Shown one piece after another: positions 1 to 45,400 of a stretch of 64,000 nucleotides of DNA. Where the stretch lies: positions 34,384 through 98,383 of the forward strand of contig CAZKCA010000001.1 in NCBI GenBank assembly GCA_964551495.1. The letters are read 5' to 3'. Every line of letters starts with the position of its first letter. Position 1 is the stretch's first letter. The position numbers and the translations under genes are program-made. The notes beneath the pieces are model-generated. The model was given only the letters and a program-made list of their open reading frames with translations, was not told where the DNA came from and ran no database searches. This DNA comes from an uncultured Candidatus Saccharibacteria bacterium. Lineage in GTDB: Bacteria > Patescibacteriota > Minisyncoccia > Phycocordibacterales > DATDWN01.

Positions 1-342
1 ATATTTTTTTGTATAAAAAAAGCTATTAAAAAAGGTTTAGATAATTTAAATCTTGATCCAAAAAATACTCAGATACTCTTAGACGGGGGACTTAAGGCTC
101 CAGATGAATTTATTTTTCAAAAAACAATTATAAAAGGAGATGAAAAAGAAAAAATAATTGCATGGGCTAGTATTTTAGCAAAGGTAGAGAGAGATAAATT
201 TATGATTAAAATTTCCAAAAAATTTCCACATTATTTTTTTGAAATTAATAAAGGTTATGGGACAAAAATACACAGAGAAGCTATATTAAAGCATGGAATG
301 TCTGAGTTACATAGGAAGAGTTTTTGTAGAATATATTTATGA
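1..342 (+). CDS. rnhB: Ribonuclease HII, C-terminal part (5' end lies outside the window)
   Basis: Translation ends ...AWASILAKVERDKFMIKISKKFPHYFFEINKGYGTKIHREAILKHGMSELHRKSFCRIYL*. The KGYGTK(E/I)H...HR.SF tail is typical of RNase HII. The frame is open from nt 1 and the stop is at 340-342. Confidence 0.6.
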   Translation: MFFCIKKAIKKGLDNLNLDPKNTQILLDGGLKAPDEFIFQKTIIKGDEKEKIIAWASILAKVERDKFMIKISKKFPHYFFEINKGYGTKIHREAILKHGMSELHRKSFCRIYL

Positions 343-491
343 TTATGATTGCAAAACACCCTCGGTTTTTGTGAAATAAACCGCTCTTCGCTTGGCTCTC
401 GGCAAACTCGCTTCGCTCAAACAGGGCCTTCGCCTAGCGCTTATAGCTTTTATTTCAAACAAAAACCTGCGAATGTTTTGCAATCATAATC
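341..491. repeat. Family A intergenic palindromic repeat, copy A1 (reverse orientation), closed by a perfect 17-19 bp flanking inverted repeat
   Basis: Core cctcggtttttgtgaaataaa...ggcaaactcgcttcgctcaaaca...ctgcgaatgtttt is shared with the copies at 32641, 36052 and 40757. Flanks gattatgattgcaaaac (341-357) and gttttgcaatcataatc (474-490) are exact reverse complements. Confidence 0.7.
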
Positions 492-573
492 ACACTAAGC
501 ATACTTAAGTAAGTATGCGATTGATTTTTTTCAATCTTGTTTTTATTTTTATTTAATGTATACTCTCTATATT

Positions 574-10452: not shown

Positions 10453-10576
10453 TTATAATTATCATTTACATAATTTTTAATTATTTTTCTATAAAGTATT
10501 GCTAACTAAAAACTTCTTTCTCCTCATCACAATTTTAGAGCACGCATAAATTTCTGCTGAAAAATCGCTGGGTCTT

Positions 10577-10655
10577 CCCTTACAGGGACTGTACACCTTT
10601 CACATTTGATTACAAATGCTCAAGGTCTTGCGAAGCTATAACATAGCTTCTCACT
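10577..10655. repeat. Family C intergenic repeat, copy C1
   Basis: A ~79-nt stretch (cccttacagggactgtacacctttcacatttgattacaaatgctcaaggtcttgcgaagctataacatagcttctcact) is essentially identical to 35790-35868. It contains the perfect hairpin gaagctat-aaca-atagcttc. Confidence 0.7.
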
Positions 10656-10800
10656 ACCCGCCTACGAAGTTCCTAAAATTGTAATAAGTCAACGAAGTTT
10701 TTAAAAAAGAGTGAGAAACAGGCTCTCTGTGGTTTTAGGAATAAAAATTACCTATACTTTTTAATAAAAATGTGGTATAAATATACCACATTTTTATTTT

Positions 10801-27393: not shown

Positions 27394-28116
27394 TTAGTTT
27401 GTGGAACTAAGTATTCCATCTATTGCTTGTTTTATATTTTCGTAAGGAAGAGCTCCTTGTATAGGAATCCTTTCTCCTGTAGATGTGATAACCAAAATAG
27501 AGTGAGGTGTACCTCTTCCACCAGAAGCAACTGCATTCTCATAGTCTTTTTGAACTATATCTTGATGTCTTCTGCTAACTAAACACTCATTAAACTCTTC
27601 TTTATTTAAACCAATTTCTTCTGCTATAAGAGGCAACTGTGTTAGATCAAGTCCGTCATTTGATTTTGTTCTTTCGTATAAAATATTTGTATATTCCCAA
27701 AATTTACCATTTCCACCTAGTTCTGCTGCACATTCGGTGGCCTCAGCTTCTATTCTAGCGTTTTTATGCAGTGAATCTATCGGAAAATGTCTATAGACCC
27801 AAGCCACTTTACCAGATGGTCCGTATTCAGCGATTATTCTCTGTAGAGTTGTGTGGAATTGTTTACAGAAAGGACACTCTATATCGGAGTATTCTACAAT
27901 GATTATATCTGCTGTTAGTTTTCCAAGTATATGATCAGATTCATCTACAGGTATCATGGCTTCTACTCCTTGTTGTGTAGGAGTCGGGTTGTTTACATTA
28001 GATACCGGTGATTTTTTATTGCTTGATAAATATATAGAGCCTCCTATTATAAGCCCAGCTATTATGATAGCCAAGGGTATAGCAAACTTATTTGTGCTCG
28101 AAGTGTTGTTTTCCAT
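27394..28116 (-). CDS. DsbA-like thiol:disulfide oxidoreductase, membrane-anchored
   Basis: N-terminal TM helix. Thioredoxin CPFC motif (DIECPFCKQFH). Confidence 0.7.
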   Translation of the reverse strand: MENNTSSTNKFAIPLAIIIAGLIIGGSIYLSSNKKSPVSNVNNPTPTQQGVEAMIPVDESDHILGKLTADIIIVEYSDIECPFCKQFHTTLQRIIAEYGPSGKVAWVYRHFPIDSLHKNARIEAEATECAAELGGNGKFWEYTNILYERTKSNDGLDLTQLPLIAEEIGLNKEEFNECLVSRRHQDIVQKDYENAVASGGRGTPHSILVITSTGERIPIQGALPYENIKQAIDGILSSTN

Positions 28117-28154
28117 ATTTTTGAGATAAAATAACTTTTTTCTAATTTTGAAAC

Positions 28155-28964
28155 GTGATAGAATTATATCTCATGACACCATTTGAGGCAATCATACTCG
28201 GCATAGTTCAAGGAGCAACAGAATTTTTACCAGTTTCTTCTTCGGGACATCTTATAATTGCAAGATCAATACTTAACCTTCCTTTGGAGTATTCTCTTAG
28301 TTTTGATGCAATACTTCAGTTTGCTAATGTAATAGCTTTGGTAATTTATTTTTGGAAAGATATATTTAAAATTTTTGTAACAATAGTTCGTTCTGTTTTT
28401 GGTATATATGTAAATAAAGAAGATAAGATTTTGGCTTGGTCTGTAGTCTTAGGAACTATACCGGCTGTTATAATAGGACTTGTTATAGAGTCTTATATGG
28501 ACACAATTTTTAGAGATGTTTTTTTGGTGGCAGTTTCTTTAGTCATCGGCAGTTTTGTTATGTTTTTTGCACAGAAACTTGGTAAGCAAGATAAGCCTCT
28601 TTCTTTGGGTAGGGGACTTGTTATCGGACTTTTTCAAAGTCTAGCTTTAATCCCTGGTATCTCTCGTTCAGGAGCAACAATTTCAGGAGGGCTTTTGGCT
28701 GGTCTTCCTAAAAACGAAGCAGTTAGATACAGTTTTGTTTTATCAATACCAATTTTACTTGGTTCTGGGGCTAAAAAACTTTTAGAAATAGATGTTTTAA
28801 ACACTTCTTTTGGAATAGATCTTTTGATCGGTTCTCTAACTTCATTTTTTGTTGGACTTTTGGTAATTCACTACTTTATAAAGTATATGAAAAACCACAA
28901 TCTAAACATTTTCATATTTTACAGAATCGCTTTAGCAATTATCTTAATTATAGCCTTATTTTAA
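28155..28964 (+). CDS. uppP: Undecaprenyl-diphosphatase
   Basis: UppP/BacA motifs (GATEFLPVSSSGHL, PGISRSGATISGG). Confidence 0.85.
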   Translation: MIELYLMTPFEAIILGIVQGATEFLPVSSSGHLIIARSILNLPLEYSLSFDAILQFANVIALVIYFWKDIFKIFVTIVRSVFGIYVNKEDKILAWSVVLGTIPAVIIGLVIESYMDTIFRDVFLVAVSLVIGSFVMFFAQKLGKQDKPLSLGRGLVIGLFQSLALIPGISRSGATISGGLLAGLPKNEAVRYSFVLSIPILLGSGAKKLLEIDVLNTSFGIDLLIGSLTSFFVGLLVIHYFIKYMKNHNLNIFIFYRIALAIILIIALF

Positions 28965-29004
28965 GACATATTTTTACCATAGACAAAAATACAACAAAAT
29001 TTGC

Positions 29005-29033
29005 TTGACAAACAATTTATAGTGTGCTAAGAT
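29005..29033 (+). promoter_or_regulatory. Near-consensus sigma70 promoter driving the orphan RNA at 29040
   Basis: TTGACA (29005-10), a 17-nt spacer, then TGc-TAAGAT (extended -10, 29028-33). Confidence 0.55.
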
Positions 29034-29039
29034 TAATAG

Positions 29040-29408
29040 TAGATAGGGAAGTCTTGTTGGTTCTCTCCCCATCACAGAGCGCGCTCGATGTTCGAGAATC
29101 AACAGGCCCAAGGTTTCGTTTCCCGGAGACCGAAGGGTTGTTAGTTTTGACAGGGATGAGTCTGGGATAGCGGGGTACCGGCACCCAGACAAATTAACAG
29201 GCCTCCTCGACAATACCGCGACAGCGTTTTTCCGGATAAAAACCCCGGGGCGCTTGGTTTAGAGGAAGATATGATCAGTGAGTGCAATGCATGGCAGACA
29301 CTGGGAGAAGACTAGTTCGTTCGTCCCACCGTCCAGTGTGTCGCACAGCTGATCCGGCCGGTTATCCGGCCAAACACGGCAGGGCGGGTTTCCTTCGGGA
29401 TCCCGCCC
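29040..29408 (+). ncRNA. Unclassified GC-rich structured RNA (~370 nt), orphan between uppP and a convergent gene
   Basis: GC content is much higher than the surroundings and no plausible ORF is present. A promoter lies upstream. The 3' end has the intrinsic terminator gggcgggtttccttcgggatcccgccc+TTTT. Confidence 0.5.
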
Positions 29409-29442
29409 TTTTACTTTTAAAATAAAAAAATATAGAAAAGAA

Positions 29443-29485
29443 ATTTTGTTTTAGCTAAAAATCTGCGAATGTTTCAAAAAGTTGT
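29443..29485. repeat. Truncated family A repeat fragment (terminal ~40 nt)
   Basis: ttttgttttagctaaaaatctgcgaatgttt matches the reverse complement of the 5' end of copy A5 (aaaacattcgcagatttttagctaaaacaaaagc). Confidence 0.5.
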
Positions 29486-29510
29486 TTTTTTAAAGTATAT
29501 GAAAAATAAG

Positions 29511-29662
29511 AATCTCTGAAACAACACCTTTCTAGAGACTCCACAGCTTTTGAGCATGGTTCCGTCAAGGCGCCCCTTCTTGACTGATCAAAAGCGAGGA
29601 CTGCTGAACAAACTCGCAGGAGTTTGTGAGGGTGCTCTAGAAAGGTGTTGTAGAGGAGATTT
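29511..29662. repeat. Family B long imperfect-palindrome element, copy B1 (ERIC-like, likely a structured RNA)
   Basis: An 18-bp perfect closing stem (aacaacacctttctagag / ctctagaaaggtgttgt) extends to ~28 bp with an internal loop. Internal hairpins cgtcaag...cttgac and acaaactc-gcag-gagtttgt are present. A homologous copy lies at 32821. Confidence 0.7.
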
Positions 29663-29678
29663 TTCCCAAACTAAACTA

Positions 29679-30260
29679 TTAAAACAAACTTTGAGTTTTT
29701 ATTTCCAGGACAGGCTCCCAGTGTTTTGTATCCAATTTTATTTCTTTGGTGAAAGGCCCTTCTTTGAAAATAAGTTTTTTATTTTTCATTGCATACTCGT
29801 AAACATCTTTTGTAATTTTTACATCATCTAGACAGTATTTTCGTATTTTATCTATTTCTCCTTGTTTCCACCATGCAACAGCTTCCAAACCATTTCCGCT
29901 TTTATGTATTCCAAAAGTCCCTTCAGCTATCTGATCTAGTTTCATCCTACGTCCGTAGGTGTTTTTTATTTCTTTCAAAATATCAAGAGACCTTATTTGA
30001 TTTAGATCTCCTAAGCCTGCTTTTTTGTAGTATTTGTTTAAAAGAGGGATATCGAAATGATCGCCATTATAGGTAATAAGCATATCTGATTTACTTATTA
30101 TTTCCCACATAGAGGGGAATTCTTCTTGGGTAAAACTTTTATAAGAATCTGATTCATAATCATAAAGTCCCACAATAGAAATATCCAAGTCAACAGGATC
30201 ATTGGACCCAACATCTTGGAATATATTTTTTGTCTCGATATCAAATACAATTTTTCGCAT
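29679..30260 (-). CDS. DEDD-family 3'-5' exonuclease (RNase H-like fold)
   Basis: Exo motif I (FDIET); the rest of the fold assignment is inferred. Confidence 0.55.
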   Translation of the reverse strand: MRKIVFDIETKNIFQDVGSNDPVDLDISIVGLYDYESDSYKSFTQEEFPSMWEIISKSDMLITYNGDHFDIPLLNKYYKKAGLGDLNQIRSLDILKEIKNTYGRRMKLDQIAEGTFGIHKSGNGLEAVAWWKQGEIDKIRKYCLDDVKITKDVYEYAMKNKKLIFKEGPFTKEIKLDTKHWEPVLEIKTQSLF

Positions 30261-31546
30261 TATTCTGTCTTTTTTATTAATTCAACTATCCCTGATATTG
30301 GTAGTTTATTTTCTGTTTCTGATTGGAGGTGTTTTATTGTATAAGAATCACTTTTTATTTCATCTTCACCAATAGCAAGAAAGTAAGGTATTTTTTGTTT
30401 CAGGGCTAATTTTATCTGATCACCTATTTTTTTGTTTGTTAAATTTACAGTGACATTTATACCTTCTGATCTTATAGCACTAGCTATATATTCAGCATTT
30501 TGTATAAAGTCTTCGTTTATAGTTCCTATAAATAGCTGACAATTTGATTTGTATTCTGGTAATAAATTGTGTGTTTCCAAAAAGTCTTTTACTGTTACAT
30601 CTCCAGCACCAAAACCAATAGCTGGGACTTTTTGTGCTCCAAAAATATCCAAAAGGTCATCATACCTTCCTCCTCCAAAAATAGATCGATTGTTTTCTGG
30701 AGAAGTGTCAAAAACTTCAAAAACTGTTCCTGTATAATAATCAAAACCTCTCATTAGTGTCGGATCAAATTTTATATTTTTTATACCATTTGCTTCTAGT
30801 TTTTCTATAAGTATGACTAAATCTTCTACGTTTTTATTTGATACTCCCAAAGTATTTAACAAAACTTCGTTTGAAGATATTAATCTAATAAAGTCATCAG
30901 TTTTATCTCCTAGTATTTCTTCTAGACTTGTTCGGAAAGTGTCTTCACTTATCTTATCTTTTTTATCTATTATTTTTGATAATTTGTATGATTTATCCTC
31001 ATCTAATGAAAAAAGATTGTATAAATCTTTCATTAGTTTTCTACTATTTAATCTAATAACAAAATCTTCTTCTTTTGCTCCGAAGTTTTTCATTATTGTA
31101 TAGGCGATTTTTATTATCTCAACATCAGCATCTTTAGATTCAACACCAAACAGGTCAACATTTAATTGCCAGTGTTCACGAAGTCTTCCTTTTTGAGGTT
31201 TCTCATATCTAAAGAGGTTTGGTATAGAGAACCATTTAATAGGAAAAGGTAGTTCTTTTACTTTGGCTGCTATCATTCTTGCAACAGTTGGGGTCATCTC
31301 TGGTCTTAAAGTAACCTCTCTTTCACCTCTGTCTAGGAAAGTATAAGTTTGTTCATTCACTATTTCTTCACCAGATTTTGCTCTGTATAATTCAGCTGAC
31401 TCTAGTATTGAGGCGCTGTATTCTTCGTAACCAAAAGATTTTGCGGTTTTTTTCCAGGTTTCAAATATGTAGTTTAGAACAAACATATCTTCTGGGTAAA
31501 AATCTCTTACCCCTTTATAACTTTCGGTACTTATTTTTTGTGACAT
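30260..31546 (-). CDS. hisS: Histidine--tRNA ligase
   Basis: Class II aaRS motifs plus the HisRS-specific GGRYD-type motif (IFGGGRYDDL) and an anticodon-binding domain. Confidence 0.85.
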   Translation of the reverse strand: MSQKISTESYKGVRDFYPEDMFVLNYIFETWKKTAKSFGYEEYSASILESAELYRAKSGEEIVNEQTYTFLDRGEREVTLRPEMTPTVARMIAAKVKELPFPIKWFSIPNLFRYEKPQKGRLREHWQLNVDLFGVESKDADVEIIKIAYTIMKNFGAKEEDFVIRLNSRKLMKDLYNLFSLDEDKSYKLSKIIDKKDKISEDTFRTSLEEILGDKTDDFIRLISSNEVLLNTLGVSNKNVEDLVILIEKLEANGIKNIKFDPTLMRGFDYYTGTVFEVFDTSPENNRSIFGGGRYDDLLDIFGAQKVPAIGFGAGDVTVKDFLETHNLLPEYKSNCQLFIGTINEDFIQNAEYIASAIRSEGINVTVNLTNKKIGDQIKLALKQKIPYFLAIGEDEIKSDSYTIKHLQSETENKLPISGIVELIKKTE

Positions 31547-31599
31547 GATAGATAAAGTATTAATAAAATGATAGACTTCTTTGTAAGTTTAACTAAAAA

Positions 31600-32358
31600 A
31601 TGACCAATATACAAGAAAAAGGGATACATTTGGTATATAAGAATCTTGGAGAAACACCGAAGGAGTGTATAGATAGATACAAAGAGAATAACTTAGAAAT
31701 AAAAGATATTCCTTTGACTTATGTTGGAAGACTTGATCCAATGGCTGAAGGACTTTTGATTTTTATAGAAAGCAACCTTTTACAAAAAAGAGGGGAATTT
31801 TTATCTTTGCCAAAAACTTATGTTTTTGAAATTTTATGGGGTTTACAGACAGACACAGGGGATGTTTTGGGTATGATTGAAAATGAAAAATTAAAAGTTC
31901 CAACGGAAGAACAAATAAAGAAAGTTTTAGACAAAAATTTAGGAGAATTTAGTCAAAAATATCCAATTTATTCTTCAGAGCCAGTAAAGGGTAAACCACT
32001 TTTTGTTTGGGCAAGAGAAGGAAAGGTTTCTGAGATAGAAATACCAGAACATGTAGTTTCTTTATATGAAGCGAAATTTTTAGAAAGAAGAGAAATTACT
32101 CCTTTGGATTTGTTTGAACAAATAAAAGAAAAAATTTCCAAAGTTAAAGGTGATTTTAGACAAGATGAGATAATTTCAAAATGGCAAGATGTTTTAAAAG
32201 ATAAAATACAAAACTTAGTGATAGACAAAATAGAAGTATCTGTCAGTTCTGGGTTTTATATAAGACAGTTTGTTCCGGATTTGGCGGATTCTTTAGGAAA
32301 CTGTGCTCTAGTTAACCACATTATCAGGACAAAAGTTGGGGATTACCAGTTGTTGTAA
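31600..32358 (+). CDS. truB: tRNA pseudouridine synthase (TruB-like)
   Basis: Catalytic-Asp motif YVGRLDPMAEGLLIF (TruB GTLDPxAxG). Confidence 0.6.
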   Translation: MTNIQEKGIHLVYKNLGETPKECIDRYKENNLEIKDIPLTYVGRLDPMAEGLLIFIESNLLQKRGEFLSLPKTYVFEILWGLQTDTGDVLGMIENEKLKVPTEEQIKKVLDKNLGEFSQKYPIYSSEPVKGKPLFVWAREGKVSEIEIPEHVVSLYEAKFLERREITPLDLFEQIKEKISKVKGDFRQDEIISKWQDVLKDKIQNLVIDKIEVSVSSGFYIRQFVPDLADSLGNCALVNHIIRTKVGDYQLL

Positions 32359-32640
32359 TTTTTTTTAAAAAGTGGTATTTATATAAATAGGAAAGGAAAA
32401 GTTTTTGGCAACTTTCAATCCGGATATCCAATTTTTTGCGAGGGATCTCTTCAATTTTGATGAAGAGAGGAAGGAGGAAAAAAGGATTCGCCGAGCAAAG
32501 AAGCCAAGCCGAAGTCACGAGGGGACCGAAAGGAAACCCCCTCGGAACCGTCCGTGCTACCGCGCACGATAGACACAAGCCCCCACATACGTGGGGGCTT
32601 TTGAATATATAAACAACAAGAGACAAATAATTTATCATCG

Positions 32641-32760
32641 TCCTCGGTTTTTGTGAAATAAAGCACTCGAAGCTGGCCTCTCGCCAAACTCGCTACACTC
32701 AAACATGCTCCAGACTTACTTTATTTTCGTCGTTGTTTTCTAATATCCTGTGCAATGTTT
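32641..32760. repeat. Family A repeat, copy A2 (reverse orientation; variant end ctgtgcaatgtttt)
   Basis: cctcggtttttgtgaaataaagcactcgaagctggcctctcgccaaactcgctacactcaaaca... is near-identical to the core of A4 (36052-36175) in reverse. Confidence 0.7.
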
Positions 32761-32820
32761 TGGGAAATAGTGTTTTATTATTAAATTTAATATTACTAAT
32801 TTATAATTATTTACAGTTTT

Positions 32821-32977
32821 TTTAATCTCCGAAACAACAACTTTTCTGGAGACTCCACAGCTTTTGGGCATGGTTTCGTCAAGGTATTCCTTCTTGACGA
32901 ACCAAAAGCGAGGACTGCCGAACAAACTCGCAGGAGTTTGTGAGGTTGCTCCAGAAAAGTTGTTGTGGAGGAGGTTA
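32821..32977. repeat. Family B element, copy B2
   Basis: Homolog of B1. The closing stem is acaacaacttttctggag / ctccagaaaagttgttgt. Three substitutions or indels relative to B1 are each mirrored in the opposite arm. Confidence 0.7.
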
Positions 32978-32985
32978 AATCGTAT

Positions 32986-34767
32986 TTACTTCTTAAAAAC
33001 CTTCTTTCTTAACCTTACAGACTTTGGAGTTATCTCTATGTATTCATCTTCAGCCATTATCTCCATGGCTTTTTCTATGTCTAATTTATAAGCAGGGGCA
33101 AGGAAAATTCCATCATCAGACCCAGAGGCACGCATGTTTGTAAGTTGTTTTCCTTTTATAGGATTTACTTGCAAATCATCTCCTTTAGAAACATTTCCAA
33201 TAACCATTCCTTCATAGACTTCCATACCAGGTTCTACATATAAAGTTCCTCTTTGTTGCAAGTTGTCTAGAGCAAAAGCTAAAACTTTTCCTTTCATCAT
33301 TGAAACCATAGATCCCAAATGACTTCTTTTTATTTCTCCAGCATAAGGTCTAAATTCTATAAACCTACTTGAAAGTATTCCTTGACCTTTTGTGTCTACG
33401 ACAAACTGTCCTCTGTAGCCCAAAAGTCCTCTAGTTGGTATTTCAAAAATAACTCTCTGAGTTGTATCTTCTTGTTTTATGTTTGTTATGATCCCTTTTC
33501 TACTAGTCAGTGTGCTTATCACAGCACTTGCAAGTTCATTTGGAACATCTACTATAACCTCTTCAAAAGGCTCAAGTTTAATTCCATTTTCTTCTTTTAT
33601 AATTACTTGTGGTTGAGAAACTTGAACTTCATATCCTTCTCGTCTCATGTTTTCTAGTAGGACAGCAATATGAAGCTCTCCTCGTCCATACACAGCAAAA
33701 CCTTCTTTAGTACCAGCAAACTCTCCTTTACTTTCAGGATTCCAATCAACTCGGAGGCCAACATTAACTTCAAGTTCTTTTTCCAATCTTTCTCTTATCT
33801 GTCTTCCTGTTACAAATTTCCCTTCGGTTCCAGCAAAAGGGGAGTCGTTTACTAAAAAGTTTAGAGAGATTGTTGGTTCATCTATCTTAATTGTTGGCAA
33901 AGGTTCTGTCTCAGGATCTTTGCAAATAGTGTCTCCAATATATATAGTCGGAAGTCCAGCGATCATAACAATATCTCCAGCAGTTGCCTCAGGGGTCTCT
34001 ACTCTTTTTGTTCCTTCAAATGTAAATATTTTTGTTATTTTTCCACTAACTGTTTCTGTATTGTGTTGTTTAAAATAAATTTGCTCACCTACTTTTACTG
34101 TTCCTTCGTATACTCTACAAATAGCCATTCTTCCTAAGAAATTATCGTAAGCAAGGTTAAAGGTTTGAAGTTTTGCCGGAGCATTTATGTCTCCGTTTGC
34201 TACTGGAACTTTTTCTAGGATTGTATCAAGTAGGGGAGTTAGATCTTTTGAATCTTCATCAAGTGTTCTTTTTGCTATTCCGTCTCTTCCAATAGCATAT
34301 ATAGTAGTGAAATCTATTTGGTGGTCATTTGCTCCAAGCTCTAAGAAAAGCTCCAGAACCATTTCGTGGACAGCGTCTGGTCTTGCAGCGGGTTTGTCTA
34401 TTTTGTTTATAACAACAATTGGCTTTAGTCCAAGTTCAAGTGATTTTTTCAAAACAAATCTTGTTTGAGGCATCGGCCCTTCTTGAGCATCTACCAAAAG
34501 CAAAACATCATCAATAGAACGAAGAACTCTTTCTACTTCAGATCCAAAGTCAGCGTGACCTGGTGTGTCCACTATGTTTATTTTTGTATCTTTGTAGTAG
34601 ATAGAAGTATTTTTAGCATAAATAGTGATACCTCTTTCAAGCTCTAGTGCATTAGAGTCCATTGTTGTCCCTTCCTCGGACATTCCTGTCTGACGCATCA
34701 AAGCATCGGTAAGAGTTGTCTTGCCGTGGTCTACGTGAGCTATGATCGCTATGTTTCTTATTTCCAT
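32986..34767 (-). CDS. typA: Translational GTPase TypA/BipA
   Basis: NIAIIAHVDHGKTTL, DTPGHADF, NKID G-domain motifs plus EF-G-like domains. 593 aa. Confidence 0.9.
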   Translation of the reverse strand: MEIRNIAIIAHVDHGKTTLTDALMRQTGMSEEGTTMDSNALELERGITIYAKNTSIYYKDTKINIVDTPGHADFGSEVERVLRSIDDVLLLVDAQEGPMPQTRFVLKKSLELGLKPIVVINKIDKPAARPDAVHEMVLELFLELGANDHQIDFTTIYAIGRDGIAKRTLDEDSKDLTPLLDTILEKVPVANGDINAPAKLQTFNLAYDNFLGRMAICRVYEGTVKVGEQIYFKQHNTETVSGKITKIFTFEGTKRVETPEATAGDIVMIAGLPTIYIGDTICKDPETEPLPTIKIDEPTISLNFLVNDSPFAGTEGKFVTGRQIRERLEKELEVNVGLRVDWNPESKGEFAGTKEGFAVYGRGELHIAVLLENMRREGYEVQVSQPQVIIKEENGIKLEPFEEVIVDVPNELASAVISTLTSRKGIITNIKQEDTTQRVIFEIPTRGLLGYRGQFVVDTKGQGILSSRFIEFRPYAGEIKRSHLGSMVSMMKGKVLAFALDNLQQRGTLYVEPGMEVYEGMVIGNVSKGDDLQVNPIKGKQLTNMRASGSDDGIFLAPAYKLDIEKAMEIMAEDEYIEITPKSVRLRKKVFKK

Positions 34768-34917
34768 AATAAAAATTGCCGTTAAAATCGTTCTTTACAA
34801 AAAAGACAAACGAAAGTCCATTAAATCACAAAATAAGGCTTTAAGTCAACCTTTGAGAGGGTTTTCTTTTGTGTATTTCTTTTCACCAAAAAATTTTTCT
34901 TTTGGTATAATGTTTTT

Positions 34918-35172
34918 ATGCAACCAATCGAGACTCCACCTTTTATAGAAAAAGTTTCAGAAGTCTTTTCTTATATTATCTCTCAAACCCCAGCTTTAAA
35001 TATTTTTCTTATTATATTTTTTGTATTTTATTTCATTATATCTGCGATACTTATGTATCACTGGAATGCTTATGGTATGAAAGCTCAGGGTGTAATTGTG
35101 GCTGAAACTTTGTATGTTTTTGTTTCTTTAGCATTATTTCTATTTGCTTCTTTAGCATTATTTTATTTTTAA
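34918..35172 (+). CDS. Small membrane protein
   Basis: Two TM helices, immediately upstream of the PH-domain protein. Putative YdbS-like partner. Confidence 0.35.
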   Translation: MQPIETPPFIEKVSEVFSYIISQTPALNIFLIIFFVFYFIISAILMYHWNAYGMKAQGVIVAETLYVFVSLALFLFASLALFYF

Positions 35173-35176
35173 AATT

Positions 35177-35728
35177 ATGATCAAGAAAAAATTAAATCTA
35201 GATCAGGACGAAAATGTCTTATTGGAAGTTAGGAGGCATTGGATAATTTTCTTAGGACACTCTTTAGCTTTACTTTTTGCGGCCATCTTGCCTTTTGCTG
35301 TTTTTACTTTGTTTAAAATGTTTTTGCCACAAATAATAGATGCAATACAAATATCTGGAAATGAAACAGCTTTATTTACTTTCTTTTATTGTTTGTGGCT
35401 TTTGTTTTTGTGGTGTTCTTTTTTTATAGAATGGACCAAATATTATTTGGATGTTTGGTATGTGACAGAAAAGAGAATAATAGACATAGAACAAAGAGGG
35501 TTGTTTTCTAGGGAGATCACTAACTTAAGGTTTGATAAAATCCAAGACGTTACTATAGATACTCATGGCTTTATCGCTACTCTTTTAGGTTTTGGAAATA
35601 TAAGAGTTCAAACTGCTGCTGAAGATAGTAGAAGTTTCTACATGGCCACAGTTTCTCATCCGGAAAGAGTCAGACAGGTTATATTTAATCAGCACAACAT
35701 CTCACAAAAAGGAGGTGGGGGTTTGTAA
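35177..35728 (+). CDS. Bacterial PH-domain (bPH_2, YdbT-like) membrane protein
   Basis: Two N-terminal TM helices followed by a PH-like segment (EKRIIDIEQRGLFSREITNLRFDKIQDV). Confidence 0.5.
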   Translation: MIKKKLNLDQDENVLLEVRRHWIIFLGHSLALLFAAILPFAVFTLFKMFLPQIIDAIQISGNETALFTFFYCLWLLFLWCSFFIEWTKYYLDVWYVTEKRIIDIEQRGLFSREITNLRFDKIQDVTIDTHGFIATLLGFGNIRVQTAAEDSRSFYMATVSHPERVRQVIFNQHNISQKGGGGL

Positions 35729-35761
35729 CAATAAAATAAAAACAAAACATATTTTTAAAAA

Positions 35762-35785
35762 CCCGCATAAAACCATCTGATTACA
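35762..35785 (+). terminator. Rho-independent terminator
   Basis: aaccatctg-atta-cagatggtt followed by TTTT. Confidence 0.55.
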
Positions 35786-35789
35786 GATG

Positions 35790-35868
35790 GTTTTTGCTAT
35801 CCCTTACAGGGACTGTACACCTTTCACATTTGATTACAAATGCTCAAGGTCTTGCGAAGCTATAACAT
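35790..35868. repeat. Family C intergenic repeat, copy C2
   Basis: Near-identical to 10577-10655. Confidence 0.7.
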
Positions 35869-35917
35869 AGCTTCTCACTCGAATATAAAGAAAACAATCT
35901 CCTCAATACGTAGTCTT

Positions 35918-36002
35918 TCGCAAACTCGGCAAAAAGCCTCAAACATGCTCAAGACTTACTTTATTTTCGTCATTGTTTTCTAATATCCTGTGCAATGTTT
36001 TT
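35918..36002. repeat. Family A repeat, truncated copy A3 (reverse orientation, ctgtgcaatgtttt end)
   Basis: ctcaaacatgctcaagacttactttattttcgtcattgttttctaatatcctgtgcaatgttttt matches the distal half of A2. Confidence 0.6.
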
Positions 36003-36035
36003 AAAAATATGTTTTGTTTTTTTGTTTAGTCCAAA

Positions 36036-36193
36036 TCAAAAGCACACTAATAAAAACATTCGCAGGTTTTTGACTGAAATAACAGCGAGAAGCGCCAGCC
36101 GGAGACACTGTCTGAGCGTAGCGAGTTTGGCGGGAGGCCAGCTTCGAGTGCTTTATTTCACAAAAACCGAGGACGTTTTTAGTGTGTGCTTTT
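36036..36193. repeat. Family A repeat, copy A4 (forward) with copy-specific flanking inverted repeats
   Basis: Core aaaaacattcgcagg...gcgagtttggcgggaggccagcttcgagtgctttatttcacaaaaaccgaggacg. Flanks aaaagcacacta (36036-47) and tagtgtgtgctttt (36180-93) are reverse complements. Confidence 0.7.
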
Positions 36194-36254
36194 GACTTCA
36201 TTTTACCAACCACAACTCTCGTGATAGAATAAGTTCCGTTAATAATTAATTTGA

Positions 36255-37565
<1,311 letters not shown>

Positions 37566-37596
37566 TAGCTTTCAAAAAATTTAGTATAATAGCTTT

Positions 37597-39105
37597 ATGA
37601 ATAAACACAAACAAGTCCTTTTAGTCGTGCTTGATGGTTGGGGTTATAGAGAAGATTCTAAAGATAATGCTATAGCACAAGCAAATACTCCTGTGTTTGA
37701 TAGGTTATGGAAAGATTATCCTCATTCATTACTCAAAGCTTCTGGTGAAGCAGTGGGACTTCCAGAAGGACAAATGGGTAACAGTGAAGTTGGTCATATG
37801 ACAATCGGCGCTGGTAAACCTTTAGATCAAGATTTAGTTAGGATAAAAAAGGCTATAGATTCTGGAGAATATGCTAAAAATCCAGCTTTTCTGGCTCTGT
37901 TTGATCATGTAAAAAAGAATGATTCAACCCTGCATGTTCAAGGACTTCTTTCGGATGGAGGTGTACATAGTCATATGGAACATCTTTTTGCTTTTCTAAA
38001 AGCAGCTAGAGAAAACGGTGTTAAAAGAGTAGCTATTCATGTTTTTACAGATGGCCGAGATACTGCTCCTCAAAGTGGTGCTGGTTATTTGAAAAAATTG
38101 GAAGAGATTTTGGAACAAGTTGGAATTGGTTTTATTGCCTCTGTTTCTGGAAGATTTTATGCAATGGATAGAGATAACAATTGGGATAGACTTGATAAGG
38201 TAGAAAAAGCTTTGTTTGAATGTAAAGGAAATGTTTGTACACTAAAACCTTCTGAATATGTAGAAAATCTTTATAAAGAAAATAAAATAGACGAGACTAT
38301 TGAACCAATAGTTTGTCTTGGTGCAGACGGTAAAGGTTGTGCCATAGAAGCTCATGACGGAGTTTTTTTCTTTAACTTTAGGGCAGATAGGGCCAGGATG
38401 ATTTCTTCAAAAATTTTAGAAAAAACTAACAAAGAAGATATTTGTTTTGTGACTCTGACAGAGTATGGGGCAGAATTTAAGTGTTTAGTTGCTTTCCCAC
38501 CAGAAGTTATTTGTTCAACTTTAGCAAAAGAGATTTCAAATGCAGGTCTTACTCAGGCACATATAGCAGAAACAGAAAAGTTTCCTCATGCAACCTACTT
38601 TTTAAATGGAGGTGTAGAAAAACCTTATCCGGGTGAAGAGCATATTCTTATCCCAAGTCAGAAAGAATTTCCAACTCATGATATGGCTCCAAAAATGCAG
38701 GCCAAAGGTATTGCAGACAAAACAATAGAGCAAATAGAAAAAGGAACACAGTTTATTTTTGTAAATATCGCAAATGCAGATATGGTGGGGCACTCAGCCA
38801 ATGTGCCGGCTATTATAGAGTCTGTGGAAGAAGCTGATAAGCAACTCGGAAGAATGGTAGAGGCTATAGAGAAAAGTGGAGGACTTGCTTTCATAACAGC
38901 AGATCATGGTAATGCAGAGGTAAATATTGATCCACAAACAGGCAATAAACATACAGCTCATACTACAAATCCCGTCCCAGCTATTGTTACAGACAAAAGT
39001 TATAAACTAAAAGATGGAACTTTGGCAGATATAGCGCCAACTATTTTAGCTGTACTCGACCTTCCAAAACCAGACTGTATGACAGGTAGTGTTTTGGTTG
39101 AATAA
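37597..39105 (+). CDS. gpmI: 2,3-bisphosphoglycerate-independent phosphoglycerate mutase
   Basis: LLVVLDGWG, SEVGHMTIGAG and TADHGNAE motifs. 502 aa. Confidence 0.9.
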   Translation: MNKHKQVLLVVLDGWGYREDSKDNAIAQANTPVFDRLWKDYPHSLLKASGEAVGLPEGQMGNSEVGHMTIGAGKPLDQDLVRIKKAIDSGEYAKNPAFLALFDHVKKNDSTLHVQGLLSDGGVHSHMEHLFAFLKAARENGVKRVAIHVFTDGRDTAPQSGAGYLKKLEEILEQVGIGFIASVSGRFYAMDRDNNWDRLDKVEKALFECKGNVCTLKPSEYVENLYKENKIDETIEPIVCLGADGKGCAIEAHDGVFFFNFRADRARMISSKILEKTNKEDICFVTLTEYGAEFKCLVAFPPEVICSTLAKEISNAGLTQAHIAETEKFPHATYFLNGGVEKPYPGEEHILIPSQKEFPTHDMAPKMQAKGIADKTIEQIEKGTQFIFVNIANADMVGHSANVPAIIESVEEADKQLGRMVEAIEKSGGLAFITADHGNAEVNIDPQTGNKHTAHTTNPVPAIVTDKSYKLKDGTLADIAPTILAVLDLPKPDCMTGSVLVE

Positions 39106-39173
39106 TTGACCAAATAACCTTTTTATATTAAAATCTTTGACTGGTTGTTCTTTGGAACACAGGAAGGAAGGTT

Positions 39174-39734
39174 TTGATGGTCAGACTTTTTGGAGATTCT
39201 AAAAATAGAGCTTTTGTTTTTCTAGGATTTCCTGGGGCAGGTAAGGGTGAACACTGCAAATACTTTAAGGATTATTATGGTTTTTACCATGTTGAAGTTG
39301 GTTATTTAATGAGGTCTAATCCAACTCTTCTTGCTTATACAGATGCAGGAATACCCTGTCCTTTTAATGAGGTATCTAGAGCTGTTTCGGAAGAGGTTAA
39401 AAAAGCCTCTTTTAAAAACATTGTTCTAGATGGGGCGCCCAGAGATGTCGATCAAGTTGGAATGGTTATTAACTTGCTAGAAGGATATTCAGTAAAGTAT
39501 ATAGTTCTGGAATGCCAATGGACCACCGCTTTTAATAGAGCAATACAAAGAGCAAGGCCGGATAGTACTCCGGAAATAGTTACAAAACGTCTAAATGATT
39601 ATGTAATATCAATAGACAAAATTTTAGATGAACTAGAAAGAAGGAGGCAAGATATTGTACATGTCAATGCTGAGCCTCCAGTCGAAGAAGTTCGTCTAGA
39701 GCTCTTGAAAATAATTTCTCCTGTTTCTGTCTAA
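39174..39734 (+). CDS. Adenylate kinase-like P-loop kinase (short form, no LID domain)
   Basis: P-loop FLGFPGAGKGEHC and LDGAPRDVDQ (compare adk LDGFPRT..Q). 186 aa. GC content is higher than the backbone. Confidence 0.55.
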   Translation: MMVRLFGDSKNRAFVFLGFPGAGKGEHCKYFKDYYGFYHVEVGYLMRSNPTLLAYTDAGIPCPFNEVSRAVSEEVKKASFKNIVLDGAPRDVDQVGMVINLLEGYSVKYIVLECQWTTAFNRAIQRARPDSTPEIVTKRLNDYVISIDKILDELERRRQDIVHVNAEPPVEEVRLELLKIISPVSV

Positions 39735-39745
39735 ACCCATTTTAG

Positions 39746-39772
39746 CGGGCCGGTAACGGCCTGCTTTTCTTT
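39746..39772 (+). terminator. Rho-independent terminator
   Basis: gggccg-gtaa-cggcctgc followed by ttttctttt. Confidence 0.5.
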
Positions 39773-39868
39773 TGTGTAAAAAATACGGTCTATTGACAAA
39801 AAAGCTTGTTTTATGTAGGTTTATGGCGTTGCCCAAGAGGGCACAGGTTCTTTGAGAGAGGTGATGTA

Positions 39869-40660
39869 GTGCGAAATCTCGCAATCTTGCTTGTACTTTT
39901 CTGCTTTGTCCTTTTGGGCAACGCAAATGTCATCACCCCATCTTTTGATGGGGCACCTGCTGGTGGATGGGTCACGGACCGTTACCAACCCAATGTATTC
40001 GCAGATATCGGCTCTTTTCAGGGCCGAAGCGACGTTCTCCAAATCGGCATCAACGCTGCTCAGGGAATGGGCAACCGTCTTTCTGGCCAGAACGGTCAGT
40101 TCTACAATACACAGGGTATGCAGTACCTTGTGTCGGGTGGAGTTGGGTCATCCATCTCAGCTGATCTGTGGATCCCGGAAGAGTGGCGAAGCGAGCTGAA
40201 TGGTTCGCGGCGGACCGACATCTGGGGAATCATGACTGATGGTACAAATGTCACAGGGTACCTCATTTTGGGATTCACCAATTATGGAGGGACTCCAACC
40301 TTCAGGGCGTGGGAAGATACTGTTGGCAGTTGGCAGATTCTCGCCAATCCCATCCAATATAATGCATGGAATACTCTTGCGATTGTCTTTCAAGGCACTT
40401 CGTATGAGTTCTATGTAAATGGATCTTTGGCCTGGACAGATAACACAGTCAATGGATCTACCGGGTTCCGAGGCCTGATCATGCAAGCCTACAACTTCAA
40501 CGGGGATGGCTCCCTTAACGCCGTCACCGCAAATGGGACAGGGAATTACTCTGCTCATTGGGCTAATACGTCCGAAGTCCCTGAGCCGGGCACAGTTCTT
40601 CTTTCTGGTCTTGGTCTTCTGGCCCTCGGCCTCTGGCGTCGGCGCCAGCAAAGGCAGTGA
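39869..40660 (+). CDS. Secreted PEP-CTERM sorting-domain protein (high GC, likely horizontally acquired)
   Basis: GTG start after an AGAGAGG Shine-Dalgarno. Signal peptide RNLAILLVLFCFVLLGNA. The C-terminus VPEPGTVLLSGLGLLALGLWRRRQQRQ is a PEP motif, a TM helix and an Arg-rich tail. GC is ~55% against a ~33% genome. Confidence 0.7.
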   Translation: MRNLAILLVLFCFVLLGNANVITPSFDGAPAGGWVTDRYQPNVFADIGSFQGRSDVLQIGINAAQGMGNRLSGQNGQFYNTQGMQYLVSGGVGSSISADLWIPEEWRSELNGSRRTDIWGIMTDGTNVTGYLILGFTNYGGTPTFRAWEDTVGSWQILANPIQYNAWNTLAIVFQGTSYEFYVNGSLAWTDNTVNGSTGFRGLIMQAYNFNGDGSLNAVTANGTGNYSAHWANTSEVPEPGTVLLSGLGLLALGLWRRRQQRQ

Positions 40661-40672
40661 GTTCTTTCAACC

Positions 40673-40705
40673 AAAAGCCGTGGGTTAACCCCCACGGCTT
40701 TTTAC
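40673..40705 (+). terminator. Rho-independent terminator
   Basis: aaagccgtggg-ttaac-ccccacggcttt followed by a T-tract. Confidence 0.6.
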
Positions 40706-40740
40706 TTACTTAAAATATTCTTCAACCTATTACAATCAAA

Positions 40741-40895
40741 AATAAAACAACTCTCAAAAACATTCGCAGATTTTTAGCTAAAACAAAAGCGAGGAACGCC
40801 AGCCGGAGACACTGTCTGAGCGTAGCGAGTTTGGCGAGAGGTCAGTGACGAGCGCTTTGTTTTATAAAAATCGAGGACGGTTTTGAGTGTGTTTT
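40741..40895. repeat. Family A repeat, copy A5 (forward) with flanking inverted repeats
   Basis: Core (40757-40880) aaaacattcgcagatttttagc...gccagccggagacactgtctgagcgtagcgagtttggcgagagg...tcgaggacgg. Flanks aaaacaactctcaaaa and ttttgagtgtgtttt are roughly complementary. Confidence 0.65.
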
Positions 40896-40905
40896 ATTTG
40901 CTCCT

Positions 40906-41067
40906 TTATGGAACCAAACTAAAAAAGGCTCCCAAATAATATGGCCACAAAGCTATAGCCAAAACTCCTTGCCAGAAAGCAAGTTTAAGATATCCAAGTG
41001 TAAATAACCAACCAACTATCCATAAGCCACCTAGACATCCGCTATTTTCTACTTTTATTTTTTGCAT
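40906..41067 (-). CDS. Putative small membrane protein (53 aa)
   Basis: MQKIKVENSGCLGGLWIVGWLFTLGYLKLAFWQGVLAIALWPYYLGAFFSLVP. Not in the supplied ORF track because it is shorter than the cutoff. No obvious Shine-Dalgarno. Confidence 0.25.
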   Translation of the reverse strand: MQKIKVENSGCLGGLWIVGWLFTLGYLKLAFWQGVLAIALWPYYLGAFFSLVP

Positions 41068-41094
41068 ATACACATTATAAAATTTTTATATGAA

Positions 41095-41132
41095 AAAAGT
41101 CCACTCAAGCTATTCTTGAATGGACTTATTTG
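41095..41132. terminator. Bidirectional intrinsic terminator hairpin
   Basis: aaaaaagtccactcaagctattcttgaatggactt: an AAGTCCA/TGGACTT stem flanked by A-tracts and T-tracts on both strands. Confidence 0.5.
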
Positions 41133-42424: not shown

Positions 42425-42934
42425 ATGTCTGAACTTCAAGAATTATTTGGTGTCAGCCGTGAGGATGCTCTCGAGTTTTTTTTAATCTCTTTGTCGGAGG
42501 TATTAGAAGGTAAAAAAAGGTCATTTAGAAATGATGAATTGTTTTATGTGGCAGATATATTAACTCGCTATTCTTTAGAACCTATAGATGAAGATGGTCC
42601 TTATGGCAATTTGAAAAATAATCTTACGTGTTTTTTGGATTTCTTTGTCTTACAAGGAAACACTTTGGGTAATCCTGAGGTTTTAGAAGATGGAGGATCC
42701 CAAGTGATCCTTTTTGCTGGTTTTTTTAGGGACCAGATGAGTAGGAGATATCATCTGTCTTATTATGAGAAAGTAGCTCAAGGTCTTTATATTAGAGCTT
42801 CTATAAATAGTCATAAATACCAAAAGAGGGAGTTTTTGGGTAGGTTTGCTCAAAGGGTTCCTTTTTGGACTCGGGCTTGTTGTGATTTGAATAAGTATTG
42901 TCGCGAGAGGAGATATTTAATAGAAATTGATTAA
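42425..42934 (+). CDS. Hypothetical protein
   Basis: GGAGG Shine-Dalgarno upstream. A terminator hairpin follows (gctgtgggatatcccacagc). Confidence 0.4.
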   Translation: MSELQELFGVSREDALEFFLISLSEVLEGKKRSFRNDELFYVADILTRYSLEPIDEDGPYGNLKNNLTCFLDFFVLQGNTLGNPEVLEDGGSQVILFAGFFRDQMSRRYHLSYYEKVAQGLYIRASINSHKYQKREFLGRFAQRVPFWTRACCDLNKYCRERRYLIEID

Positions 42935-42965
42935 AAGAAAGCTGTGGGATATCCCACAGCTTTTT

Positions 42966-44144
42966 TTAATCTATGAAAGTCAAAGCTTTGCCTGTTTTGC
43001 CTCCTCGTCCAGTACGGCCTATACGGTGGATGTAGTCTTCGTATGTAGAAGGCAGTTCATAGTTTATAACGTGACTTACATTTGGTATATCTAACCCTCT
43101 AGCCGCCACATCTGTTGCGACCAGTATCTGACTTTTGTTATCTTTGAATTGATTAAGAGCCCTCTGTCTTTGAGTGTGGTTTTTATTGCCATGAATAGAC
43201 TCTGCTTTGAAACCTCTGGTACCTAGCATTTTAGAAAGATTTTCTACTCCATGTTTTGTTCTACCAAAAATCAAAACTTTATTAAATTCTGGTTTTGAAA
43301 GTAAATTGTGAAGTATTTCTAACTTTGGTCCGTTTTTAACATACACTACATCCTGATCTACGCTGTGAGCAGTATCTCTTGTTTTAACAGAAATATTTAC
43401 AGGGTCATTTAAAAATTCTTTTATGATTTTGTTTATATCTGGAGATATTGTAGCTGAAAAGAAAAGAGTTTGTTTTTCTTTTGGCATAGATTTTACTAGA
43501 AATCTCATATCATTTATAAATCCCATATCTAGCATTCTATCTGATTCGTCCAAGACTATTGTTTGGAATTTGTTTAGTTCTATATTTCCTCTGTCTACCA
43601 AATCTTTTATTCTTCCAGGTGTTCCAATAACAAAGTTGTAGCTACGACGAAGATCGTTTATTTGTCTAAATATAGGCATTCCTCCTACTACACAAACAGA
43701 AAATATAGATAGACCAAAAGCAAATTTTGTCAGTTCTTGATTTATCTGTATTGCCAATTCTCTTGTTGGAGCAACTATCAAAACTTTCTGATTTTTGTTT
43801 TTAAATATTTTATTTAAAAGGGGAATAACAAAAGCAGCAGTTTTACCTGTTCCTGTGTTGGCGATACCAACAATATCTCTGTTTTGTAGAATAAAAGGGA
43901 TGGATTCGTCTTGGATGGGTGTAGGGTGAAGGTATCCATGTCTAAGTACATTATCTTTTAATTTTTGTTCAATAGGGAAATCAGCAAATGAATTTGTTGG
44001 AATATAAGGTTTTTCTTCCACAACCAAATCAGCTTTTTTTATAAACTTTGAAACATCACTAAAGTATTTATTATTTACACGAGGTTTTCTAAATGCTCGG
44101 TAGTTACCGGAGTTTTGACCCCGGTTAATTCGTTTTCTAAACAT
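42966..44144 (-). CDS. DEAD-box ATP-dependent RNA helicase
   Basis: Q-motif region, AxTGTGKT (ANTGTGKTAAF), PTRELA, DESDRM (DEAD variant), SAT and HRIGRTGR motifs. Confidence 0.85.
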   Translation of the reverse strand: MFRKRINRGQNSGNYRAFRKPRVNNKYFSDVSKFIKKADLVVEEKPYIPTNSFADFPIEQKLKDNVLRHGYLHPTPIQDESIPFILQNRDIVGIANTGTGKTAAFVIPLLNKIFKNKNQKVLIVAPTRELAIQINQELTKFAFGLSIFSVCVVGGMPIFRQINDLRRSYNFVIGTPGRIKDLVDRGNIELNKFQTIVLDESDRMLDMGFINDMRFLVKSMPKEKQTLFFSATISPDINKIIKEFLNDPVNISVKTRDTAHSVDQDVVYVKNGPKLEILHNLLSKPEFNKVLIFGRTKHGVENLSKMLGTRGFKAESIHGNKNHTQRQRALNQFKDNKSQILVATDVAARGLDIPNVSHVINYELPSTYEDYIHRIGRTGRGGKTGKALTFID

Positions 44145-45283: not shown

Positions 45284-45400
45284 ATTTTAATTTAAATTAT
45301 AATCGCACATACCCCATTTTTTAGGGGTATTCCACTATTATATCAAATTTAGGGGTTTTTTTGTTCTCGCAATCCACATCAATTGGTGCAATTTAATTAC

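Follow-up and report, generated by a model that had tools for sequence, protein, structure and literature searches.

Hairpin-closed repeats with copy-specific closing stems in a streamlined Paceibacterota genome

Genomes of the candidate phyla radiation (CPR; Patescibacteria) are among the smallest and most streamlined known, yet a 64-kb stretch of one of them (assembly GCA_964551495.1, contig CAZKCA010000001.1; hereafter the window) carries nine hairpin elements, which amount to about 1.5 kb or roughly 2% of its length. One of these, A4, lies just past the middle of the window and belongs to a repeat, family A, whose copies are typically enclosed by a pair of complementary flanks, the closing arms, that differ in sequence from copy to copy. 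An initial annotation, made from the sequence alone, took this preserved pairing as a signature of selection on an RNA or cruciform stem, and not of simple copy-paste transposition. The question raised by this locus is whether a stem that is private to each copy proves a functional RNA. The analysis described here indicates that the copy-specific stems are more likely an effect of DNA copying than proof of a functional RNA. Together with a longer form (A'), families B and C, and a 60-nucleotide (nt) mini form, family A makes up a superfamily. The explanation favoured, with moderate confidence, is a non-autonomous mobile palindrome, comparable to REPIN, ERIC or miniature inverted-repeat transposable elements (MITEs), whose arms are made and kept complementary by template switching within the palindrome.

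What is new here is that CPR bacteria carry a modular superfamily of palindromic, hairpin-closed repeats, with the unusual trait that each copy has a private closing stem. The superfamily is large, resides in tiny Paceibacterota genomes, and occurs across related genomes. It appears to be undescribed; no description of these hairpin repeats was found in the literature on CPR mobile elements or on noncoding RNA of Patescibacteria. The relatives compared comprise 80 loci (1.3 Mb), labelled with L-numbers, of which even the closest pairs are only about 80-85% identical. Three sequences referred to below are L082, a JGI metagenome contig; L060, a metagenome-assembled genome (MAG) of Taylorbacteria; and L001, a 1899-nt Logan contig from SRR12977061.

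Family A and its closing arms

Family A is a genuine repeat. The 22-mer core has 3 matches at ≤3 mismatches, compared with 0 expected from 100 shuffles, and an nhmmer profile built from the copies recovers five long copies with E-values of 1e-30 to 4e-40. Every copy listed in the initial annotation is present, at the position it had given or a few bases away. The window contains four full copies, one chimera and one fragment of family A (Table 1). The repeat matches themselves cover 353-479 (-) for A1, 32639-32762 (-) for A2, 35918-36002 (-) for A3, 36052-36180 (+) for A4, 40756-40884 (+) for A5 and 29444-29491 (-) for the fragment A6. The A3 match had been described as a truncated copy; it is actually the 5' part of a complete and longer A' element. 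The family-C module of 80 nt within A3 (35800-35879) matches 10576-10655 at 100% identity. The genome is very compact and has few permissive spacers; the copies occupy these, in both orientations and mostly just past stop codons, and the placement at gene ends that had been proposed is correct. The low-coordinate arm of A1, on the side of rnhB, opens at the rnhB stop codon TGA (340-342).

The complementary flanks are equally real. The three flank pairs quoted in the initial annotation were found as written, and with their flanks A1, A4 and A5 each fold into a single long hairpin, with energies of -71.7 kcal/mol (z -10.2), -60.0 kcal/mol (z -5.7) and -47.9 kcal/mol (z -2.9), respectively. All three combine a GC-rich conserved core with AT-rich arms and form the single long hairpin on either strand. 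Among 13 elements of the wider family, the left flank aligned to the reverse complement of its own right flank gives a mean local score of 15.9, compared with a mean of 5.4±1.3 and a maximum of 9.5 for the right flanks of other copies. Own-flank pairing holds for 13/13 elements, so the claim of copy-specific complementary flanks stands for these, but not for A2, which has none. A2 is the one long copy in this state, which fits its origin as a chimera: its 5' half is AT-rich and common to A3, while its 3' half is 96% identical to A4.

Comparison of cores with arms is informative about how the pairing arose. A5 and A7 (a family-A copy in L082), as well as mini copies 2 and 3 of L038, have cores that are 91-95% identical and arms that are no more alike than background. 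In the orthologous pairs L038-3/L026-2 and L038-1/L026-1, the cores are 90-95% identical and the arms have changed, yet are still complementary. L038-3 and L026-2 differ by several substitutions and by 4-7-nt indels on both arms, while the core and the downstream gene align, and the arms of L038-3 form a near-perfect 33-nt pair. A matched indel, of 1 nt, also separates the arms of B1 from those of B2. Compensatory mutations that arise independently could hardly leave matching indels on the two arms; copying of one arm from the other does so in a single step. Mismatches in the arms number 6 of the G-T type and 2 of the A-C type by hand count, too few to decide the matter.

Table 1. Elements of the superfamily in the window (window coordinates)
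Element	Type	Position	Strand	Features
A1	full family A	338..494	-	core 358-476; closing arms 338-357 and 477-494
C1	family C	10525..10688	-	A'-type 3' end TTTATGCGTG; own arms ACAATTTTAG / CTAAAATTGT
A6	family A, 5' fragment (about 48 nt)	29444..29491	-	same subfamily as A5 (90%), with similar 5' flank
B1	family B	29508..29664	+	core ends ACTCCACAG...GAGGGTG; 30-nt arms
A2	chimera	32639..32762	-	A'-type 5' half and A-type 3' half; without complementary flanks
B2	family B	32821..32979	+	directly downstream of BipA, antisense; orthologous copy at L002 8702-8850
A3	complete A'	35733..36026	-	30-nt arms 35733-35762 and 35997-36026, 93% complementary
A4	full family A (the copy first annotated)	36036..36193	+	core 36056-36175; arms about 36039-36055 and 36176-36193
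A5	full family A	40741..40900	+	core 40760-40879; arms 40741-40759 and 40880-40899

A modular superfamily that turns over at shared sites

All families are built to one plan, consisting of variable complementary arms, a conserved 5' end, a GC-rich middle and a conserved 3' end. The 5' end of the core reads AC-ATTCGCAG, AC-ATTGCACAG, ACTCGCGCAG or ACTCCACAG, in short AC-(A)TT(C)GCAG or ACTCGCGCAG, and the 3' end reads GAGGACG, GAGGGTG or A(T/C)GCGTG. The two ends are asymmetric, not inverted copies of each other. In the GC-rich middle, GCGCCAGCCGGAG of family A resembles GCGCCGAGCGGAG of the mini form. A', C and the mini form have a subterminal 3' hairpin located 7 nt from the end, and the mini form has in addition a 5' hairpin 10 nt from the start; family A lacks a separate 3' hairpin. 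Inspection by eye of the junctions of A1, A4, A5 and the L038 copies showed no direct target-site duplication.

The families differ in their distribution. A' is present in five relatives (L014 10781-10941, L009 16985-17144, L028 5818-5985, L005 7561-7673 and L003 2701-2813), in each case with its own complementary arms of 17-25 nt. Its first bases are ACATTGCACAG, and at its end a small hairpin (AAAATC...GATTT) precedes ATGCGTG or a near variant (ATTCTGGT in L005 and L003). The mini form, of 59-60 nt and sequence ACTCGCGCAGGCGCG.CGGCGCCGAGCGGAGCAGAAATC...GATTTACGCGTG, has three copies in L038 and two in L026. Family B occurs in L002, L012, L014, L016, L022, L028 and L082, and family C in L003 and L015. 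The family-A core has no match in all 80 relatives' loci and is found in one JGI metagenome contig as A7 (L082 5609-5727), which has private arms AATACCAGACATTTCAAAC / GTTTGAAATGGTTGGTATT and adjoins a B copy (B7). An exact 24-mer of the core has no match among GTDB species representatives or viral contigs, exact patterns for the mini form, B, A' and C have none in viral contigs, and searches of phage and plasmid records gave no match. In an unbiased scan of 1.37 Mb, 228 inverted repeats had arms of ≥16 nt at a spacing of 45-330 nt, compared with 102-153 in Markov controls, and many of the long-armed ones meet the core at ...GAG / AC.

Neighbouring elements are arranged in a regular manner. 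Adjacent elements are head-to-head in 5/5 pairs, namely A6 with B1, A2 with B2, A3 with A4, A7 with B7 in L082, and B with A' in L028. Families A and B adjoin in one and the same relative orientation in three cases, and A' and B in a fourth.

Comparison of orthologous sites indicates that the elements turn over. L002 is collinear with the window over 21482-40660, with 83% identity in HisRS and 91% in enolase; its region downstream of the RNaseH-like gene, where a peptidase M3 gene is located, is not comparable. L002 is precisely without A2 at the orthologous site. Its spacer between the bPH gene and enolase measures about 60 nt and contains no hairpin, versus a 460-nt block of A3 and A4 in the window, and at the site of A5 it has a family-B copy instead. 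B2 is orthologous in the window and L002. Family A is therefore missing from all three orthologous sites in L002, indicating that copies have been gained or lost. Different families also reuse the same spacers across lineages, namely TruB-BipA, TruB-HisRS, HisRS-RNaseH-like and the spacer downstream of the PEP-CTERM gene. Taken with the chimeras, nesting and fragments, this gain and loss is the behaviour of mobile or duplicative DNA.

A separate case is found in L027, where 19195-19328 holds a 5' remnant of a mini element (arm plus ACTCGTGTAA) and, after it, a hairpin-closed element of another kind, whose arms are GCAACAAAAAAGCTTTC / GAAAGCTTTTTTTGTTGC. The site is orthologous to L026-2 and L038-3, and the arrangement reflects either replacement or nesting.

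Origin of the copy-specific stems

The pairing within family A was evaluated with the four intact copies, a consensus hairpin of 51 pairs and 500 shuffles. Paired cells make up 94.1% of the alignment compared with 84.4% in shuffles (0/500), and 16 pairs have changes on both sides compared with 9.0±1.8 (0/500). Slid registers of the same four-copy alignment are only 39-49% paired. That pairing is kept through double changes, as the initial annotation had claimed, is therefore well founded. Strand asymmetry of folding was considered as a further RNA signal and rejected. The forward strand folds better in 19/21 elements, but only in 13/21 when each is compared with its own shuffles; the apparent advantage is due to composition, since G exceeds C on the forward strand in 21/21 elements.

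The pairing results agree with what a multi-copy structured RNA family would produce, whether a small RNA or a cis-acting element of the 3' untranslated region, in which selection at the RNA level keeps the closing helix while the sequence drifts. Several other features point the same way. Predicted G-U pairs are kept in 4/4 copies (columns 25-137, 66-93 and 67-92), and the 3' hairpin of A' and the mini form covaries (CCC/GGG, CGT/ACG, CAC/GTG, CGC/GCG). The core is 88-95% identical between species at orthologous loci, one strand has the excess of G over C, and the elements have an orientation bias relative to the abutting gene. Nevertheless, this explanation is considered unlikely. Under the composition control both strands fold equally well, and the stems are almost entirely Watson-Crick (G-U in 76/1218 pairs on the forward strand and 48/1176 on the reverse, RNAfold). 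Rfam 15 gave no match at the gathering score for the window, nor at permissive thresholds of E≤5 for 28900-41100 and E≤1 for L038, L014 and L009. Both orientations are found in the window, and a conserved promoter or terminator was not seen by eye in the flanks read; a left-arm promoter in particular was rejected by eye, with -10-like hexamers being frequent and not consistent. The matched indels in both arms of orthologues are improbable under point-wise compensation, and unrelated arms surround nearly identical cores. Chimeric, nested and fragmentary copies and presence or absence between close relatives, including the three L002 sites without family A, likewise argue against the step from preserved pairing to an RNA stem that the initial annotation had taken. 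The case carries a caution for RNA discovery: strong apparent covariation together with copy-specific closing stems can arise at the DNA level by arm-to-arm templating, and such stems do not by themselves prove a functional RNA.

Alternatively, the arms might be host hairpins: a mobile core would insert into the middle of terminator-like palindromes that were already present, or would be retained at such sites alone. The native terminators of the window are palindromes with an A-tract, a stem and a T-tract and with arms of 16-23 nt (10409-10459, 10763-10798, 42934-42967 and 44272-44306), and the arms of A3, A4 and A5, with their A-tracts and T-tracts, resemble them. A1, B2 and the L009 element have no T-run after the stem, and a terminator consensus scan called none of the elements. 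Insertion into a loop would explain near-identical cores within unrelated arms and the position of copies right past stop codons, and has a precedent in insertion sequences that target REP (repetitive extragenic palindromic) elements (PMC1525189). In addition, the outermost arms GCAA(C)AAAAA / TTTTTG(T)TGC are common to L026, L027 and L038 at one orthologous site. Arms of up to 29-33 nt are a poor fit to this proposal, as are arms that are related between B1 and B2 and weakly between A4 and A5. Complementarity usually extends to the conserved core, with no loop remnants. The hairpin-free spacer of L002 is a further difficulty. The initial annotation had named ordinary terminators at the flanks as the finding that would count against a structured element; the flanks were not clearly of this kind, given that at least one related copy lies in a spacer between divergent promoters. 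Mini copy 2 of L038 and the L006 element are located between the divergent start codons of TruB and HisRS, a spacer that in most relatives measures 10-65 nt and in L026 and L027 is 17 nt long and free of hairpins. L003 and L014 have inserts there that are closed by inverted repeats and contain no recognised core. The outermost arm of L038 copy 2 on the TruB side resembles an inverted copy of the extended -10 box of HisRS opposite (TGTAGAAT), and the left arm of A5 has a counterpart in L002 whereas the right arm has none. The 17-nt spacer, the hairpin-free L002 site, the TGTAGAAT copy, the one-arm match of A5 and the arm of A1 at the rnhB stop codon together favour arms that were written locally, each from its partner, and prior host hairpins seem a rather improbable source.

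The expanded TruB-HisRS spacers measure 160-210 nt (L014 9312-9474, L003 9834-10001 and L006 9781-9992). In L014, the 22-nt arms ATCCGAACACTAACTTTAGCAT / ATGCTAAAGTTAGTGTGCGGAT appear to enclose the promoter region and not a recognisable core.

A mobile palindrome with template-switched arms is therefore the preferred explanation. The core would be spread in trans by an enzyme encoded elsewhere, for which the leading candidate is a Y1/HUH transposase of the RAYT (REP-associated tyrosine transposase) or IS200-like type, based on the asymmetric ends, the lack of target-site duplication and the subterminal 3' hairpin in A', C and the mini form. The strong hairpin of the core may then provoke intramolecular template switching during replication, which would rewrite one flank as the reverse complement of the other, extend the stem outward and repair mismatches in single events. 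Published work documents that template switching creates the arms of inverted repeats, homogenises and lengthens them, and imitates compensatory evolution (PMC8794818, PMC13100816, PMC8604942, PMC7202029). A further contribution may come from selection for hairpin stability at gene ends, where the structure would act as a terminator, an insulator or protection of the mRNA 3' end. If template switching does write the arms, the elements are a natural, replicated record of the process. If the conserved cores have a host function in termination, insulation or mRNA stabilisation, they represent a CPR-specific solution.

Several observations weigh against this explanation. Core conservation of 88-95% exceeds what selfish DNA would need, which points to a function that depends on the sequence. 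At about 9/9 loci (A1, A3, B1, B2/B4, B7, L028-B, L014-A', L038-1 and L038-3), the element that first follows a stop codon is antisense to the gene in question. A purely DNA-level model gives no reason to expect this; the count is soft, since convergent genes flank some of the elements. B1 itself begins 15 nt past the stop codon of the RNaseH-like gene. The arms of B1 and B2 are clearly related and those of A4 and A5 weakly so, suggesting that some arm sequence can travel with the copy, and no visible host flank accounts for the inner 29-nt arms of L038 copy 2. The state of a site before insertion was not seen directly in comparisons between pairs at this distance. Finally, no transposase adjoins any copy examined, and a Pfam scan of window proteins found none in the window, as the initial annotation had stated. 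A scan of all loci for HUH motifs identified only L060, whose GTAG REPs are unrelated to the superfamily.

In L060, the region 2336-3416 holds a gene for a 226-amino-acid Y1_Tnp protein (IS200-like; Pfam E = 2.4e-7, with an NHFHLL motif) between REP-like palindromes GTAGAGGTCAGACCTCTAC. The RAYT gene and its REPs occupy the same TruB-BipA spacer that holds A2 and B2 in the window. Pairing rules of the IS608 type, between guide and cleavage site, gave no fit to the mini core by hand.

Two further explanations carry less weight. There is a slim chance that these are mobile hairpins defined by structure, without outer boundaries of fixed sequence. These would arise either from template switching alone, with no transposase, or through an enzyme that recognises the internal loop conserved at the foot of the core and cuts where the closing stem ends; either may have been domesticated as a terminator or insulator module of ultra-compact CPR genomes. 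Much less probable still are attC-like recombination sites of an integron-like or other site-specific system, that is, imperfect palindromes of the form ...AAC / GTT.... A size of about 125 nt, imperfect dyad symmetry and the inner arm end AAAC...GTTT of family A are reminiscent of such sites. The RYYYAAC / GTTRRRY consensus, on the other hand, is not matched beyond AAC/GTT, and the inner ends of the other families are GAG...CTC. The gene context largely refutes attC sites, with copies in both orientations among syntenic housekeeping genes, no cassette array, and no integrase in the window.

Relation to known repeats and other features of the window

The superfamily has most in common with REP, BIME and REPIN sequences (PMC3116915, PMC3333891, PMC2817692). 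Both are short extragenic palindromes at gene ends, present at high density with inverted neighbours, that stay long at orthologous loci, lack target-site duplication and contain no transposase within the repeat. A RAYT-like gene with REPs is present in the related genome L060. The differences are also substantial. Cores of the superfamily are 59-240 nt compared with 20-40 nt for REPs, their ends are asymmetric, each copy has a private outer stem, and no cognate RAYT was found in the 64-kb window. The conserved GTAG foot of the REP hairpin is lacking; the superfamily instead ends in ACATTCGCAG / GAGGACG or ACTCGCGCAG / ACGCGTG. Family A has a single GTAG (GCGTAGCG), which lies internally and is GAAG in A1 and A7. 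The partners of the head-to-head pairs described here come from different families, unlike those of a REPIN doublet.

ERIC sequences, also known as intergenic repeat units (IRU), are imperfect palindromes of about 127 nt in transcribed intergenic regions of enterobacteria. They resemble family A in their near-equal size, imperfect dyad, intergenic location, internal insertions and size variants, and in having no known transposase. They belong to another phylum, however, and have not been described as closed by copy-specific flanks. A blastn search (word size 11) for homology found no match in 5,426 complete E. coli genomes.

Elements derived from IS200/IS605 (PMC3333891) share asymmetric ends, the absence of terminal inverted repeats and target-site duplication and, as regards A', C and the mini form, subterminal hairpins. 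In the superfamily the left flank ends in AAAAC, CAAAC, TAGAC, TAGAG, AAAAG or TGGAG, a loose pentamer W-R-R-A-(C/G). As a target this is far looser than the TTAC or TTGAT of IS200/IS605 elements, which in addition are not flanked by inverted host sequence; furthermore, family A is without the separate 3' hairpin, and neither TnpA nor TnpB was seen. Insertion of IS1397, ISKpn1 and IS110-family elements into REPs (PMC1525189, PMC12288879) is similar in that insertion at the centre of a palindrome leaves complementary half-sites as flanks. These elements encode their own recombinase and use a single conserved target repeat, so that the flanks are the same for every copy, whereas here they differ at every copy. 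MITEs of the DDE type were rejected; they have shared terminal inverted repeats and direct target-site duplications, while the sequences outside the cores described here are inverted and not direct repeats. Template switching at quasipalindromes accounts for perfect long arms, matched indels, one-step "compensatory" changes and outward growth. It is a mutational process and not an element family, however, and does not explain how a core reaches new loci.

The window has a G+C content of about 33% and contains housekeeping genes only. These include RNase HII, NusB, RNase III, SMC, RNase R, S16, TrmD, RpoB/RpoC, DnaG, sigma-70, an AddA-like helicase, BacA, HisRS, TruB, BipA, enolase, iPGM, adenylate kinase, ClpP, Fmt, PriA and two MreB-like genes. 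RpoB is up to 89% identical to its nearest named relatives, which are "Candidatus Paceibacterota / Parcubacteria" MAGs, and this places the host in the CPR. L001 is the only other public contig with the exact enolase sequence. It begins inside A4, at element position 115, and the repeats therefore break short-read assemblies of this organism.

Three other stretches of the window are of note. At 29005-29417 (+), a GC-rich, highly structured stretch of about 375 nt (-150 kcal/mol) lies behind a strong sigma-70-like promoter (TTGACA, 17 nt, TG-n-TAAGAT) and ends in a GC-rich hairpin and TTTT (around 29381-29413). Neither Rfam nor ARAGORN gave a match and the 80 loci hold no counterpart; the stretch may represent an RNase P-like RNA that has diverged, or an RNA particular to CPR bacteria. 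At 45400-45790 (+), a near-consensus promoter (TTGACA, 17 nt, TATAAT) precedes an RNA-like structured region of about 350 nt (-134 kcal/mol), for which there was no Rfam match, no tmRNA call and no match in related loci. The third, at 32359-32604 (+), is a GC-rich stretch in the TruB-BipA spacer with its own terminator (GCCCCCAC...GTGGGGGC TTTT). It is 73% conserved with L002, with a 6-nt indel, and may be a degenerate gene or an RNA. In distant relatives this spacer is longer and by eye seems to hold small reading frames.

Two observations concern the protein-coding genes. The gene at 39806-40660 (+) encodes a 284-amino-acid protein with a C-terminal PEP-CTERM sorting motif (Pfam E = 2.4e-6) and a weak match to Laminin_G_3. 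Such a motif is not expected of a CPR genome, and the window showed no exosortase. The reading frames 52335-53435 and 57101-58171 are putative MreB-like paralogues, a label based on the GIDLGTANT motif, and share near their 5' ends a 97-nt stretch (52429-52525 / 57141-57237) of 73% identity.

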